From Candidatus Hermodarchaeota archaeon (lineage in GTDB: Archaea; Asgardarchaeota; Heimdallarchaeia; Hodarchaeales; Hodarchaeaceae), in NCBI GenBank assembly GCA_048886185.1, contig JBHLKY010000023.1:1-32000 (forward strand): a stretch of DNA of 32,000 nucleotides, given 5' to 3'. Below, in pieces: positions 26,178 through 31,091 of this stretch. A program made the translations under genes and the position numbers. Under the pieces are notes generated by a model. The model saw only the letters and a list, made by a program, of their open reading frames with translations, searched no databases and was not told where the DNA came from. Each line of letters opens with the position of its first letter. Positions within the stretch are counted from its first letter, which is position 1.

Positions 26178-27638
26178 ATGCAATTACAGGCAATGAAACC
26201 ATTGTTAAAACTCTTTGAAGGGGGGCCTTTAGCTTATATGACAAAATCACTGGCGAGTAATCTAGTTAGTGTATGCTCTCATTGTAATCAGAGTCTAATC
26301 AATAGGGTTTTTCCTATAGTGCAAAAGAACGAATCTGATTGTGTATTTTGTAAACCTAGTAGTCTTATGGCTAGATTCTTCTTAAGAAAAATTCTCGGTT
26401 TAAATGATAATGAATTCAAAAGATTTGCTTCAAACAGTCTATATAAACGGTCAGTAGTTGCGTGGATTCGGGGGATAGGAAGATTTGGGGTGAGTAGACC
26501 ACAACCTACCCTACCACCAATAGCAATTGTATGGAATTTTACGAACCACTGCAATCTTAAATGTCTCCATTGCTATCAAGATTCTTCTCTCATTACAGCT
26601 TCAAATGTGAATAGTTATCCAAAAGAGCTATCTACAGCAGAAGCTCTTAGAGTTGTCGATATTGTTGCTAAATCAGGGTGTGGGTCATTAAGTTTCTCTG
26701 GGGGAGAACCTCTTCTTCGCGATGATTTCTATAAAATTGCACACCATACTTCTAACCATAGATTACTTTGTACGCTCTCAACAAATGGTACATTGTTGGA
26801 TCATACAGTAGCTAAAGACTTGATTTCAGCAGGTGTGAGTGGAATATCGATCAGTCTTGATAGTCTCAGTTCAAAGTTCCATGATGAATTACGCGGAACC
26901 CCTGGAGCTCATACTAAGGCTGTTCAAGGAATTGAAGTATGTGCGGAAAATAGTCAGTTCAAAGAACTCATTATAGCTACAACCTTAACGAACAGGAATT
27001 TAGATGATATTTCAGGGCTTATAGAATTTGCTTCAGAGGTTGGAGCTACACGAGTGTATTTTTCCAGAATACTACCAGTGGGACGAGGAAAATCATTACA
27101 ATCTATGAATATCACACGAGAAGAGCAGAGGAAAGTATTGAAATACTTAGCAAAAAAATTCATTGATTATATTCAATATGGAGAACCATCAGTCGCGGTT
27201 ATGACGCGCGGAATGACTTATTTTGCTTCTCAATGTGCCTCACTCTCAAACTACAAGCATTTTCCTATTAGTGAGATAGTCATTGGCATTGAAAAACGTC
27301 ATAAAGAGATATTAGGTAATTCTGCAAAAACGCTCTTCAGACAATTTGCTGAATATGCAGGGGGATGTGCAACAGGATTAACTTATTGTGGATTGAGTCC
27401 AGAAGGAGATATCTTACCATGTGCTCCTGCCACTGATGTACATTTAGGTAACATACTTAAAGATGGGTTGGAAAGAATTTGGATAAACAATCCTGTATTA
27501 CGTCAAATTAGAGGCCGTTCTCTGGTTAAAGGGAAGTGCAATAGCTGTAAAAGTACTCTTATTTGTGGAGGTTGTCGAGTGACTGCTTATGGAACAACTG
27601 GAGATTGGCTTGCATCTGACCCCTCGTGTCCCTATTGA
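26178..27638 (+). CDS. Radical SAM protein with a SPASM domain and a Cys-containing N-terminal extension
   Basis: VWNFTNHCNLKCLHCY (CxxxCxxC), SFSGGEPL, STNG, SISLD. SPASM: GCATG...CGLSPEGDILPC...CNSCKSTLICGGCR...DPSC. N-terminal CSHC and CVFC. Confidence 0.9.
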   Translation: MQLQAMKPLLKLFEGGPLAYMTKSLASNLVSVCSHCNQSLINRVFPIVQKNESDCVFCKPSSLMARFFLRKILGLNDNEFKRFASNSLYKRSVVAWIRGIGRFGVSRPQPTLPPIAIVWNFTNHCNLKCLHCYQDSSLITASNVNSYPKELSTAEALRVVDIVAKSGCGSLSFSGGEPLLRDDFYKIAHHTSNHRLLCTLSTNGTLLDHTVAKDLISAGVSGISISLDSLSSKFHDELRGTPGAHTKAVQGIEVCAENSQFKELIIATTLTNRNLDDISGLIEFASEVGATRVYFSRILPVGRGKSLQSMNITREEQRKVLKYLAKKFIDYIQYGEPSVAVMTRGMTYFASQCASLSNYKHFPISEIVIGIEKRHKEILGNSAKTLFRQFAEYAGGCATGLTYCGLSPEGDILPCAPATDVHLGNILKDGLERIWINNPVLRQIRGRSLVKGKCNSCKSTLICGGCRVTAYGTTGDWLASDPSCPY

Positions 27639-28180
27639 ATGATTTTAGTGTTTTGAGGAGCACTCTGGATCAACAGATCACTATATGATTTAGAAACTAA
27701 GTTTTCTTCAGAAATCTCAAATAGTTCAAGAAAAAATTGGCATTGCTCCCGCAATTTCTCGATTCCAATCGTACCATCAATATCGATAGCTTCTACCTCT
27801 ACAAAAGACCCTAAATTTTCAACATTGTCGATATGGAATTTTATGTTTTCAATGAAGTATATTGCCCTTTGCTTAGAGACTACAACAAGAACTCCTAAGG
27901 ATTTTGTCAGAATCTCTCTTAAGGAAGATGAGGAATTAGGATCATATTTAAAAAGAGTTACATCAGATTTTTTTGGTTCTTTTGTATCACTTCGTTCATA
28001 ATAGATAAGAGCATTTTCGATTTTTCCCTCTCTCAATTTTAGCCTCCCAGAATTCACTTTAAAATAAGTATCTACTTGGATATCTATACCTTTAAAATCA
28101 GCTTTTCGGGAAATAAGAATTTCTTTAATTTTTCCTGGATCGGAACATTTTGCTTTAAATTCGATATTTTTATGCGTCAT
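27632..28180 (-). CDS. CYTH domain protein (class IV adenylate cyclase CyaB / triphosphate tunnel family)
   Basis: NIEFKAK, QVDTYF, RLKLRE, LIYYER, VSKQRAIY, HIDNVENLGSFVEVE, SYSDLL; ATG at 28180. Confidence 0.9.
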   Translation of the reverse strand: MTHKNIEFKAKCSDPGKIKEILISRKADFKGIDIQVDTYFKVNSGRLKLREGKIENALIYYERSDTKEPKKSDVTLFKYDPNSSSSLREILTKSLGVLVVVSKQRAIYFIENIKFHIDNVENLGSFVEVEAIDIDGTIGIEKLREQCQFFLELFEISEENLVSKSYSDLLIQSAPQNTKIIQ

Positions 28181-28283
28181 AATAATCATTCCTCTCACAT
28201 TTCCAAGGTGAATTTAAATAATATTCTTCTTTTTTAAAAGAAAAAGGTATGATTACCCATAGTAGGTGGGATTACCTATAGTA

Positions 28284-28661
28284 ATGCTTATGGTTTATCT
28301 TCGAACGACTTCTTTGAGGAGGAGGTTTGCTCGATACCTTACATTGTACCCTGATCTCTTTGCTGGTAAGTTAGTTGAAGGCCTGTTTCTCATGACGAAT
28401 ACTGGGAAAAGTATGACGCTACTTTTACCCGAAATGCAGAAACATAAAGGAAACATTGAAGTATCGATCCTTGAACCGGTTCGAATTGAAGATTTTCTGG
28501 AAGATTCAGAGCTAGGAAGGATGGCTTCTTGGTTAAAGGACAAAAACAAAGTTCGAAAGGTATTACAAAACGAGAAAGACGAACAGCTTCCAGAAGAGGT
28601 AAGCGAACTATTACAACAAGTTACAAAGAAAAGAATCTCTGTTCAGTGGAGAATCACTTGA
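28284..28661 (+). CDS. Hypothetical protein (~125 aa), first gene of the SMC-like operon
   Basis: Long open frame with a protein-like charged C-half (VLQNEKDEQLPEEVSELLQQV) and AGGTGG SD-like sequence upstream. The start could be 28266 (GTG), 28284 or 28290. Confidence 0.6.
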   Translation: MLMVYLRTTSLRRRFARYLTLYPDLFAGKLVEGLFLMTNTGKSMTLLLPEMQKHKGNIEVSILEPVRIEDFLEDSELGRMASWLKDKNKVRKVLQNEKDEQLPEEVSELLQQVTKKRISVQWRIT

Positions 28662-28687
28662 TTTTAAAGAAGTACTACCAGAATTCT

Positions 28688-28693
28688 GGAGGA
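28688..28693 (+). promoter_or_regulatory. Shine-Dalgarno GGAGGA for the 56-aa ORF
   Basis: GGAGGA lies 7 nt upstream of TTG 28701. Confidence 0.55.
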
Positions 28694-28700
28694 TGGTGTC

Positions 28701-28871
28701 TTGGCTAAAGGAAAGATAAATGGGGAAGAAATTCTTCATTCAGCTGAAATTGAGTTGATTGAGTATCTAAAACAGCTCAGCTCATTACCAACACAAGCTC
28801 CAAAAAAAGAAGACCCTATATCACGAATTCTTCAGAAATACATAAAAAAATGGCGAGGGATTAAGAAATGA
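28701..28871 (+). CDS. Small helical hypothetical protein (56 aa; not in the supplied ORF track)
   Basis: MAKGKINGEEILHSAEIELIEYLKQLSSLPTQAPKKEDPISRILQKYIKKWRGIKK*. It has a strong SD, a TTG start, and a stop overlapping the SMC-like ATG (ATGA). Confidence 0.65.
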   Translation: MAKGKINGEEILHSAEIELIEYLKQLSSLPTQAPKKEDPISRILQKYIKKWRGIKK

Positions 28872-30712
28872 CTTTACATATAATCTTGGAAAATATCGGA
28901 GGGATTGATAAAGTTGGATTGGACTTCAAAGAAGGAAAGAATTTAATTAAAGCACCAAATGCAACTGGAAAAAGCTCGCTTGTTCGTGGAATTGAACTTC
29001 TAAACTTACCACGAGAAAAAATAGAAAACCGTAGATATTACCTTAATCTTTTTGCCACCAAAGGCCGAGTTCAATTACAAAGAGATGGGAAAGTGATTTG
29101 TGAACGTAAATTCGAGGTTAAAGGGAATAAAATTGATGTTCAAGGAAAAGCTTTTCATCCCGAACACCAAAAAGCGAATTTATTTACTCTGGCAACTCCT
29201 GATAACGAGCTTATAGCTGCAATCACTACTGGAAAGAATTTAGAGAAACTTCTAACACAATACTCTGATGTGAAGTATTATTCCTATTTAATTTCAAATC
29301 TTAAAAGTCGAATAGCAAACCTGAAAAAAGATCTTCGCGTTTATTTAATGTATGAGTCTGATATTGATAATATGCAACAGGAACATTCTCAATTAGAGAA
29401 AGAACTGGAGAAGGCCAAAATTGAGCGAGCTACACTTCCTGAAATCAATCTGGAAGAGATTCAGTCATATTCAGAAATAGAAAATCGATATCATAAGTTA
29501 TCTAAGGAAGTTTTATCTCTTAAAAATAAAATTGAAAGTGCTTCTGACATTATAAAATTAAATATGGCTAGGAACCGTGATACAAAAGCTCAAATAAAAT
29601 CTATGGAAGAAGAAATCAAGAATTTTATGATTGAACACCCAAGTGTTGATCAGGAGATTGCTCGAATAACTGATGAAACGAAGGAATACCGACGATATTT
29701 AGAAGAGGTAAAAAATGAAAAAGGAGAGACTGAAAAAGCAATCAAAGAGGTAAGAAACTGGATTTCTTTGTCTCAACGAATGCCAGACCTACGAAAGTGT
29801 ATCGTTTGTGGACGGCCTTATACTGAAAAACATGCTAAAACACGAGAAGATAAGCTATTAGTAGAAGACTCTCATCTCAGCAAACGCGTTCGTGAATTAG
29901 AATTTCAAATCGATGATGCAGAACGACGAAAAGAAGATTTGGAAGTATTAATTCACAAAATTAAAAATGACAATCAAATAAGAATAAGTAAAGCCAAACA
30001 AGAAATCAGACGACTCCAAAAGGAGATTACTGACAAGAATCAAGAAATTGAATCATCTGAGCAGAGATATGCCGAGAAGGAGTCTGAATTAACTATTCTT
30101 GAGAGATCTGTTGATCAAGGTCGAGCTGATTCAATTAAATTAATAAATGAGCTCGATGCTAAGATTCAGAGAATCTTAGGAAAGATTGAGCAGCTTGATA
30201 AACAAATAAGTGAAAAGTCTGAACGTATTGATCAGATTGACCAAGTTCAGTCCGAATTCAACTTCTATAGTGCCTTAGAAGCTTATCTCGAAGAACGGGA
30301 AAAGATCGTTAAACTAGGTGTTATCGAGAATTTTAATCATCAAATCAAGAAAGTGTATCAACTAATGTCGTATCAAGATTTTGAAGACATTCGTATTGAT
30401 CCGAACTTTAACTTAATTGTTAGACGTAAACGAAAGGGAAAATTAATAGACCAACCTATCGAAAGTTTAAGTGACAGTGAACGTATAACAATTGCTCTAA
30501 TTGTGATGTTAGCTGGACGTGAGGAATACCTAACTGATTATCCCCTATTCGTTTTAGACAAAGTTACTTTAGATTACGATCCCACAAGGTTTGAAATGAT
30601 CTTAGATTACCTGAGTCAACGAGAAGTTCCATATACTTTGGTCACTCTTGCGCAAAGTATTGAAGAGGGTAGTGGGCAGTTAGAGGTTGAGTACATTGGT
30701 GTTAAAACATAA
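28868..30712 (+). CDS. Archaea-specific SMC-related protein (ASRP/Sph/ClsN-like; Rad50-like coiled coil with Zn hook)
   Basis: LENIGGID, Walker A APNATGKSS, long coiled coils, central CIVC at residue ~311 of 614, signature-like LSDSE, Walker-B-like FVLDKV. Confidence 0.8.
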   Translation: MTLHIILENIGGIDKVGLDFKEGKNLIKAPNATGKSSLVRGIELLNLPREKIENRRYYLNLFATKGRVQLQRDGKVICERKFEVKGNKIDVQGKAFHPEHQKANLFTLATPDNELIAAITTGKNLEKLLTQYSDVKYYSYLISNLKSRIANLKKDLRVYLMYESDIDNMQQEHSQLEKELEKAKIERATLPEINLEEIQSYSEIENRYHKLSKEVLSLKNKIESASDIIKLNMARNRDTKAQIKSMEEEIKNFMIEHPSVDQEIARITDETKEYRRYLEEVKNEKGETEKAIKEVRNWISLSQRMPDLRKCIVCGRPYTEKHAKTREDKLLVEDSHLSKRVRELEFQIDDAERRKEDLEVLIHKIKNDNQIRISKAKQEIRRLQKEITDKNQEIESSEQRYAEKESELTILERSVDQGRADSIKLINELDAKIQRILGKIEQLDKQISEKSERIDQIDQVQSEFNFYSALEAYLEEREKIVKLGVIENFNHQIKKVYQLMSYQDFEDIRIDPNFNLIVRRKRKGKLIDQPIESLSDSERITIALIVMLAGREEYLTDYPLFVLDKVTLDYDPTRFEMILDYLSQREVPYTLVTLAQSIEEGSGQLEVEYIGVKT

Positions 30713-30714
30713 CC

Positions 30715-31074
30715 CTAATCCCTAGCTGCAATTGCTTCAATCTCTATTCGTGCTCCCAAAGGTAACGCTGCTACTTGAATTGTAGCTCTCGCTGGGGGTT
30801 CAGATGGAAAAAATTTTGCATATTCCTCATTTACTAATGCGAAGTCGTTTATATCTGTTAAGAAGATAGTCGTTTTTACTATATCACTTAGATAGGCTTT
30901 TGCTTCATTGAGTATATTTTCGATTTTCTCAATTATTTCCCTTGTTTGAGTTTGAATATCAGCGTCCAAATTTGTCGCAATTTGACCAGAAACATATATG
31001 TGTTTTTTTCTTGATGTTTGAATCGCAGGACTGTATGGACCTACTACTTGACCGATTTTTATTGCTTTTTTCAT
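30715..31074 (-). CDS. ridA: RidA/YjgF/YER057c/UK114 family enamine deaminase
   Basis: GPYSPAI, YVSGQI, VKTTIFL, FALVNEEY, PARAT (catalytic Arg), LPLGARIEIEAIA. Confidence 0.9.
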   Translation of the reverse strand: MKKAIKIGQVVGPYSPAIQTSRKKHIYVSGQIATNLDADIQTQTREIIEKIENILNEAKAYLSDIVKTTIFLTDINDFALVNEEYAKFFPSEPPARATIQVAALPLGARIEIEAIAARD

Positions 31075-31091
31075 AATTATCACATTTAAGA

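Follow-up and report, generated by a model that had tools for sequence, protein, structure and literature searches.

An archaea-specific SMC-related ATPase of an Asgard archaeon and its two conserved small upstream genes, candidate accessory subunits of an SMC-like machine

Structural maintenance of chromosomes (SMC)-family ATPases work only with accessory subunits. One branch of the superfamily, the SMC-related proteins that are specific to archaea (ASRPs), includes coalescin (ClsN) of Sulfolobus and the Sph1-4 proteins of haloarchaea, and is recognised by a Walker A motif and a Walker B motif at the two termini of the chain and by a zinc hook, whereas the genes that flank its members follow no consensus according to the paper that described the family (Yoshinaga, Nakayama & Inagaki 2022, PMC9389158). 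In Haloferax volcanii, Sph3 and the small protein RdfA are both needed for rod shape, and about 80% of haloarchaeal RdfA and Sph genes lie side by side (Schiller et al. 2024, PMC10869688). Here we analyse a stretch of 32,000 nucleotides (the window) from the Asgard archaeon Candidatus Hermodarchaeota archaeon (assembly GCA_048886185.1, contig JBHLKY010000023.1), where an ASRP gene closes a cassette of three genes on the + strand, preceded by two small open reading frames (ORFs) that we call ORF1 and ORF2. In contrast to the lack of consensus reported for the family, this constant pair of small upstream genes recurs with Asgard ASRPs, and we favour, with a probability of roughly 0.6, the reading that the three genes are a single operon and their products the parts of a small SMC-like machine, which most likely acts on DNA.

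The original prediction, made from the letters of the window, had described an ORF1 of 125 amino acids (aa) from the ATG at 28284, an ORF2 with a GGAGGA, a TTG start and an ATGA overlap, and an ATPase of 614 aa. All three were confirmed on the + strand at their coordinates, and the Walker A, CxxC hook, signature and Walker B motifs read in the large protein were all located (Table 1). Its placement among the archaeal SMC-related proteins, as kin of ClsN and Sph, was also correct: the ATPase scores 369.4 bits against NF045487, the NCBIfam equivalog model for ASRPs, whose curated cut-off is 300 bits, over model positions 1-591 of 593. Rad50 models give only 35-44 bits, against cut-offs of 700-1087, and SMC models 27-30 bits, against cut-offs of 567-729. 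The layout is that by which ASRPs are defined, with an N-terminal Walker A, a central CxxC and a C-terminal Walker B in one chain. Both Walker motifs line up with those of haloarchaeal and methanogen ASRPs, and C311, C314, the Walker B aspartate and the serine and glutamate of the signature are invariant in an alignment of eight Asgard, haloarchaeal and methanogen sequences. Residues from about 140 to 480, which match the coiled-coil parts of Rad50 and SMC models, would form the two arms. By sequence, then, the protein belongs to the ASRPs proper and adds a new member to this known family; it is 18-23% identical to the haloarchaeal Sph proteins with which it was compared, and a sequence search of the PDB with the ATPase returned nothing below E 0.1. 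The genome also holds a second, separate SMC-like ORF of 1220 aa, and the ASRP is therefore no substitute for condensin.

The association that the original prediction drew between the two small genes and the ATPase is upheld by gene neighbourhoods, since ASRP genes are preceded by ORF1- and ORF2-like genes across the genus and in four more Asgard families, in a second and a third ASRP clade and in metagenome contigs. Within the genus, 13 other species carry both small genes directly upstream of the ASRP orthologue, with the frames open and in register. Identities across these congeners are 42-85% for ORF1, 43-78% for ORF2 and 65-87% for the ASRP, and the ratios of nonsynonymous to synonymous substitution (dN/dS, Nei-Gojobori) are 0.07-0.25, 0.15-0.40 and 0.03-0.06, respectively. 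By these measures ORF1 and ORF2 are real genes under purifying selection. The surroundings are also kept, with a RidA gene and a PCC-domain gene downstream in all 13 species and a CYTH gene upstream in eight. The ASRP is missing from 5 of the 21 congeners, and the same five lack ORF1 and ORF2; three of these species have enough flanking contig to show that RidA and PCC are retained while other genes take the place of the cassette. This co-absence indicates that the three genes are gained or lost as a unit and that they are not essential to the genus. Among the ASRP-less loci (L118-L121, from genomes G018, G020, G013 and G002), the cassette's place is occupied by a gene of 450 aa where the flanks suffice to see it.

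Beyond the genus, a match to the ORF1 family occurs in 22 of 400 Asgard genomes (7 of 85 genera). Wherever a strong match lies outside the genus (G024, G054, G123, G148 and G182) an ASRP gene comes next, and where metagenome contigs extend far enough to show a neighbour, as two do, the order is the same, an ORF1 homologue and then an ASRP. The ASRPs that follow these distant ORF1 homologues are only 25-30% identical to that of the window. At the distant loci the ORF1 homologue overlaps at its end with an ORF of 50-65 codons that terminates at the ASRP start; likewise, an ORF of 45-65 aa runs up to the ASRP start at every other Asgard ASRP locus that was examined, and the stop of ORF2 overlaps or abuts the start of the ASRP in every locus examined, the window included (ATGA at 28868-28871). 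A second ASRP clade (for example in G211, G128 and G181, and as second copies in G005 and G054) is preceded by proteins of about 120 aa, which as a group match the ORF1 family (hhalign 90.7%, E 1e-6), and then by a helical ORF of about 45-55 aa, while a third clade (G176, G178 and G253) keeps an ORF of about 45 aa. Judged by this distribution, the linkage of ORF1 and ORF2 to the ASRP is ancient. There is also a locus outside the Asgard archaea, on a G+C-rich contig binned as Fidelibacterota (L031; GCA_046861655.1, JBHIAI010000027.1), where an ORF1-family gene precedes a 615-aa ASRP that is 28% identical to ours, so that either a bacterium acquired the genes by transfer or the contig is archaeal and was mis-binned.

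The pair of small genes is itself preceded in all other lineages by a gene for a single-domain AAA+ ATPase, whose length is about 235-250 aa in the first clade (loci L037, L053-L056 and L030) and in the second (L101, L103 and L104), and 413 aa in the third (L105-L107). The two that were scanned match PF00004; they resemble Cdc48, PAN and IetA only generically, with weak matches of IetA/TRIP13 type. In the first clade, a protein of about 250-300 aa often precedes the AAA+ gene in turn; it gave no match in Pfam, NCBIfam or PADLOC and no informative neighbour in the ESM Atlas. The window genome contains no orthologue of either the AAA+ ATPase or the ~250-aa protein, and the trio is therefore read as the reduced form of a module of four to five genes.

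ORF1 and ORF2 had no match in direct family searches of Pfam, NCBIfam and PADLOC, and what can be said of ORF1 comes from its predicted structure and from its family profile. The AlphaFold2 model (pLDDT 76.5) places a strand at residues 2-6, a helix at 10-19, two strands at 24-29 and 32-35, a helix at 39-55 and a strand at 56-60, followed by four helices, so that the protein is predicted to consist of a ferredoxin-like beta-alpha-beta-beta-alpha-beta domain (residues 1-60) and a helical tail. By eye, the original prediction had seen a Cas2/VapD-like ferredoxin pattern in this half of the protein. The ferredoxin-type fold is recovered in the model, and the likeness to Cas2 or VapD looks generic: Cas2 chains are matched at E 3.4-3.6 in Foldseek and at Z 3.1-3.4 in VIA, values equalled by many unrelated ferredoxin-like chains, and Pfam gave no Cas2 match, so that the impression more probably reflects a fold class than a relationship. 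Foldseek found no PDB match at E <= 0.001, and the wide VIA search, with a best Z of 4.5 for a Bax1 domain, returned only generic ferredoxin-like rows. The real relative is DUF7855, a Pfam family of uncharacterised haloarchaeal proteins of about 120 aa whose predicted fold and length are like those of ORF1. A DUF7855 protein (PF25253 + PF26293) is the best ESM Atlas match of the ORF1 model (TM 0.67/0.69 over 111 residues), and the ORF1 family profile aligns with haloarchaeal DUF7855 over 86 columns (hhalign 94.9%, E 4.2e-8). One distant member of the ORF1 family (P0005) reaches 26.3 bits on PF25253, whose gathering threshold is 27, while the window ORF1 and 14 close homologues show no match to that model even at E 10. 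On profile comparison, ORF1 is thus a distant homologue of DUF7855 at superfamily level that itself lies below the PF25253 threshold. The family is small, with 19 cluster representatives among 1.84 billion proteins and, in a larger collection, 40 proteins that are all labelled 'hypothetical'. A tblastn search of plasmids with a DUF7855-like member found none.

ORF2 is modelled as two helices (residues 8-28 and 39-55) joined by a loop, with a pLDDT of 70.8 and a basic N-terminus, and its W51, L23 and L26 are invariant across the 13 congeners; in the ESM Atlas the model found generic helical hairpins only. The GGAGGA and a TTG or GTG start are kept in the six closest species (L001-L006), and in two further ones (L015 and L016) the start is an ATG placed 3' of the ORF1 stop. 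Five congeners (L007, L010, L011, L012 and L014) have a longer ORF2 of about 80 aa, with an extension of 25-30 residues rich in lysine, arginine and serine, which starts about 130 nt within ORF1 in another frame. A single segment of L007 aligns twice in the window, at 28710-28789 with a score of 59 and at 28612-28687 with a score of 44, against a mean of 22 and a maximum of 42 for shuffled sequences. With this modest support, a tandem duplication of about 98 nt (copies at about 28612-28687 and 28710-28789) seems to have split a formerly overlapping ORF1 and ORF2 in the clade of the window, and the alternative-frame ORF over the ORF1 3' end seems, equally modestly, to be a relic of the 5' part of the older, longer ORF2. 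The overlap of frames in some species also raised the idea of a frameshift fusion of ORF1 and ORF2, which was dropped, since in the window ORF2 is equipped with a ribosome-binding site and a start of its own and since its ATG lies 3' of the ORF1 stop in L015 and L016. On one related contig the ORF2 homologue had been missed by the gene caller.

The closest described arrangement is the RdfA-Sph3 pair, where a small protein gene also lies beside an ASRP gene with conserved synteny; in Halobacterium sph2 and in Halosolutus the partner gene is upstream of the ASRP, as it is in the window. The partners themselves differ, since RdfA is one protein of about 200-250 aa with conserved cysteines near both ends, whereas the window encodes one protein of 123 aa and another of 56 aa, neither of which shows such motifs. 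Searching plasmids with the ASRP by tblastn gave 114 haloarchaeal and methanogen records, and among five plasmid neighbourhoods, three have an annotated rdfA directly upstream or downstream of the ASRP gene and two have hypothetical genes of about 207 aa there. Homology of ORF1 and ORF2 to RdfA, including the idea of a split RdfA, was considered and rejected, with 0.1% in hhalign against the RdfA alignment and no match to PF21811. RdfA (PF21811) is over its cut-off in none of the 400 Asgard genomes. Haloarchaeal and Asgard ASRPs thus each come with a small gene next door, yet the partner is not shared between the two phyla.

Among the better-known machines, Rad50-Mre11 likewise has a zinc-hook ATPase of the ATP-binding cassette (ABC) type, with an antiparallel coiled coil such as is proposed for the ASRP, and Mre11 holds Rad50 by a C-terminal helix-loop-helix on the head-proximal coiled coil. 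The window locus has no Mre11, and the Rad50 models are far below their cut-offs; the genuine Rad50 genes of Asgard archaea, which have Mre11 upstream, lie elsewhere than the ASRP loci. Some Asgard proteins match NF045487 more weakly, at about 110-150 bits, and the two such loci examined have Mre11 upstream, for which reason these weak matches are read as Rad50 and not as ASRPs; they are L109 and L110 (Asgard family f14), which encode Rad50-like proteins of about 685-692 aa with Mre11 directly upstream and reach 150 bits on the ASRP model. Smc-ScpAB, MukBEF and JetABC resemble the cassette in that small accessory genes precede the gene for an SMC-superfamily ATPase, but differ in that the window ATPase has a zinc-hook motif in place of a hinge and only half their size. 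In the Pfam, NCBIfam and PADLOC scans, nothing at the locus matched a kleisin, KITE, LmuA or LmuC. By sequence, neither small protein is a kleisin, a KITE or RdfA, and the predicted fold of ORF1 is ferredoxin-like and not the winged helix of KITE. The literature search found no paper on an Asgard ASRP partner set, on DUF7855, on an Asgard operon of SMC-like and AAA+ genes or on sph1 with hp24. The Asgard ASRP with a DUF7855-like protein and a helix-loop-helix microprotein as its probable partners is thus an undescribed variant of the theme of SMC proteins with accessory subunits.

How such a machine might work can be outlined by analogy. The ASRP chain would fold back on itself, so that the N-terminal Walker A half and the C-terminal Walker B half form one ABC-type head; two such chains would be linked through the CxxC zinc hook at their centres, with ATP drawing their heads together. 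Through the ATGA overlap, translational coupling would yield ORF2 in a fixed ratio with the ASRP. The microprotein would most likely bind the ASRP in the manner of the short helical elements of kleisins or Mre11 on the head-proximal coiled coil, and ORF1, with its DUF7855-like alpha/beta domain and helical tail, would be a second accessory subunit. ORF1 and ORF2 are probably both ASRP accessory subunits, a view in which physical binding and stoichiometry are what we infer, and the pairing of an ASRP with small partners is plausible because haloarchaea offer a precedent, RdfA and Sph3 sharing one phenotype (PMC10869688). The complex would most likely organise or partition the chromosome or other DNA; a DNA-directed cellular role is suggested by the analogy with ClsN and by the basic tail of ORF2. 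In a complex prediction of ASRP, ORF1 and ORF2, with the ASRP as the scored chain, the score was 0.58, and it was 0.59 in the control where an unrelated protein stood in for ORF1. More tentatively, and with rather less conviction than even odds, the DUF7855-like protein and the microprotein could constitute a new class of SMC accessory proteins, distinct from kleisin, KITE, Mre11 and RdfA and ancestral to all Asgard ASRP clades, in a holocomplex that originally had its own AAA+ ATPase.

Several observations weigh against the preferred reading of the trio as a three-subunit machine. One concerns the ATP site. The residue after the Walker B aspartate is a lysine in the window ASRP and varies in the family (K, A, S, G or E), being glutamate in 3 of the 8 aligned sequences, and no His switch is seen at its usual position near the ASRP C-terminus (30542-30580, aa 559-571, and the alignment). 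Because of the missing glutamate and histidine the site looks non-canonical, like the rest of the family; the ATPase cycle of ASRPs may be unusual, and a classical cycle of ATP hydrolysis is uncertain with neither a catalytic glutamate nor a His switch in the sequence. The trio of the window may, moreover, be a reduced or partly disabled version of the larger module seen in relatives. The only recognisable relatives of ORF1 are the haloarchaeal DUF7855 proteins, whose genes are single-copy and lie away from ASRP genes; a link with SMC-like ATPases is therefore no general property of this fold. ORF1 has three candidate starts, GTG 28266, ATG 28284 and ATG 28290, which makes its beginning ambiguous: the frame is open from 28266 to 28661, and the last of the three aligns with the start (M-V-Y/W) of the most distant homologues. 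Finally, the cassette is dispensable in the five congeners that lack it, and ASRPs are patchy and often plasmid-borne (PMC11344861), a patchiness as compatible with an accessory role, or one derived from a mobile element, as with housekeeping. As to the haloarchaeal DUF7855 genes themselves, in two Halorubrum genomes (L080 and L081) the gene lies directly 3' of an intein-containing mcm and 5' of a DUF7857 gene, while in two other haloarchaeal genomes no mcm lies within 1.5 kb of it.

The same three proteins could instead form a unit that controls foreign DNA, either as a Lamassu- or Wadjet-like defence system or as a maintenance module derived from a mobile element, which we consider unlikely. 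The window ASRP does align end to end with the PADLOC LmuB model PDLC03859, though weakly (76.9 bits, E 5e-22, with no curated cut-off supplied for the model), and distant ASRP homologues match it too; to this can be added the patchy occurrence of ASRPs and their frequency on the plasmids of haloarchaea and methanogens in the 114 records above, the extrachromosomal origin that a review proposes for the family (PMC11344861), the lack of the whole cassette in 5 of 21 congeners and the weak IetA/TRIP13-type matches of the relatives' AAA+ gene. Yet the likeness to Lamassu ends with that one full-length, weak LmuB match. The locus has no match to an effector (an LmuA-like nuclease or JetD), to LmuC or to JetA/B, and neither LmuA nor LmuC is matched in PADLOC by ORF1, ORF2 or the extra genes of relatives. 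In 16 species the cassette keeps its synteny and has been inherited vertically, the ASRP being under the strong constraint given above, unlike a typical defence island, and the IMG/VR viral contigs scanned with the ASRP alignment contain no relative. The characterised members ClsN and Sph3, moreover, have cellular roles (PMC9389158, PMC10869688). The second of these could suggest a module for cell shape or cytoskeleton, in which ORF1 and ORF2 take the place of RdfA. That both Sph3 and the adjacent RdfA are required for rods (PMC10869688) speaks for it, as does the small partner directly upstream of the ASRP at Halobacterium sph2 and Halosolutus; we nevertheless hold it to be very unlikely, given that the small proteins are unrelated to RdfA, that RdfA itself is over cut-off in no Asgard genome of the set, that identity to haloarchaeal Sph proteins is so low and that the locus carries no envelope or cytoskeleton genes.

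Other doubts bear on the small proteins alone. Linkage and co-loss by themselves cannot tell stable from transient partners, and the rate at which ORF1 and ORF2 change is three to ten times that of the ATPase, so that a functional link through transient regulators, assembly factors or loaders, in place of stable subunits, has to be weighed; a stop/start overlap kept over deep divergence is more typical of subunits made in a fixed ratio, a suggestive point only, and we judge the transient alternative quite unlikely. That one or both small ORFs are not genes at all, the region being an untranslated leader of the ASRP mRNA, is scarcely credible. It would accord with the shortness of ORF2 and its TTG start, but 13 species and distant families alike keep the frames open, AT-rich as the genome is, the dN/dS of each ORF is far below 1, ORF1 has a confident predicted fold and 19 family representatives, and ORF2 conserves its ribosome-binding site, its start, its helix-loop-helix pattern and an invariant tryptophan. 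We retain the three-subunit, DNA-directed machine as the preferred reading.

Table 1. Position of the cassette, its motifs and its neighbours in the window
Feature	Position	Strand	Remarks
ORF1	28290..28661, 123 aa	+	alternative starts GTG 28266 (131 aa) and ATG 28284 (125 aa)
ORF2	28701..28871 (TTG to TGA), 56 aa	+	predicted helix-loop-helix microprotein
ASRP ATPase	28868..30712, 614 aa	+	NF045487 match
Shine-Dalgarno-like GGAGGA	28688..28693	+	7 nt ahead of the ORF2 TTG
Conserved GGTGG(G) motif	28264..28269	+	in the divergent intergenic region, 5' of ORF1; includes the alternative GTG 28266
Alternative-frame ORF, 59 codons	28529..28708	+	covers the ORF1 3' end
ASRP Walker A, APNATGKSS	28952-28978, aa 29-37	+	motif in sequence
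ASRP zinc hook, CIVCG (CxxCG)	29798-29812, aa 311-315	+	motif in sequence
ASRP signature-like, SLSDSER	30464-30484, aa 533-539	+	motif in sequence
ASRP Walker B, PLFVLD	30542-30559, aa 559-564	+	followed by Lys, not the catalytic Glu
CYTH-domain gene	27632-28198	-	flanks the trio upstream
RidA/L-PSP gene	30715-31083	-	flanks the trio downstream
Radical SAM/SPASM protein gene	26178-27638	+	convergent with the CYTH gene

The neighbours of the trio in the window are CYTH, RidA and PCC genes, none of them pointing to envelope or cytoskeleton. The radical SAM/SPASM and CYTH genes converge, with an overlap of 7 nt at their 3' ends. On the other side of the CYTH gene, the GGTGG motif lies about 15-20 nt 5' of the pair of ORF1 ATGs, at the same distance in 13 of 13 congeners, and may be a ribosome-binding or initiation element; its spacing to the ATG exceeds that of a typical Shine-Dalgarno sequence.

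Haloarchaeal RdfA has been the sole partner described so far for the ASRP family, and the Asgard pair adds an undescribed set. Its constancy and age make it a concrete candidate complex of three proteins to reconstitute, or of four or five with the AAA+ ATPase in other lineages. The locus also provides the first context for a branch of the uncharacterised DUF7855 family, and adds a conserved microprotein of a kind that gene calling may overlook. Between archaeal phyla, ASRPs have exchanged one partner set for another, which bears on whether the family has one job, the organisation of DNA, or several, among them shape and defence. And if the more tentative idea of a new accessory class were true, it would reveal an SMC-like holocomplex that had gone unrecognised, in the lineage of archaea nearest to eukaryotes.

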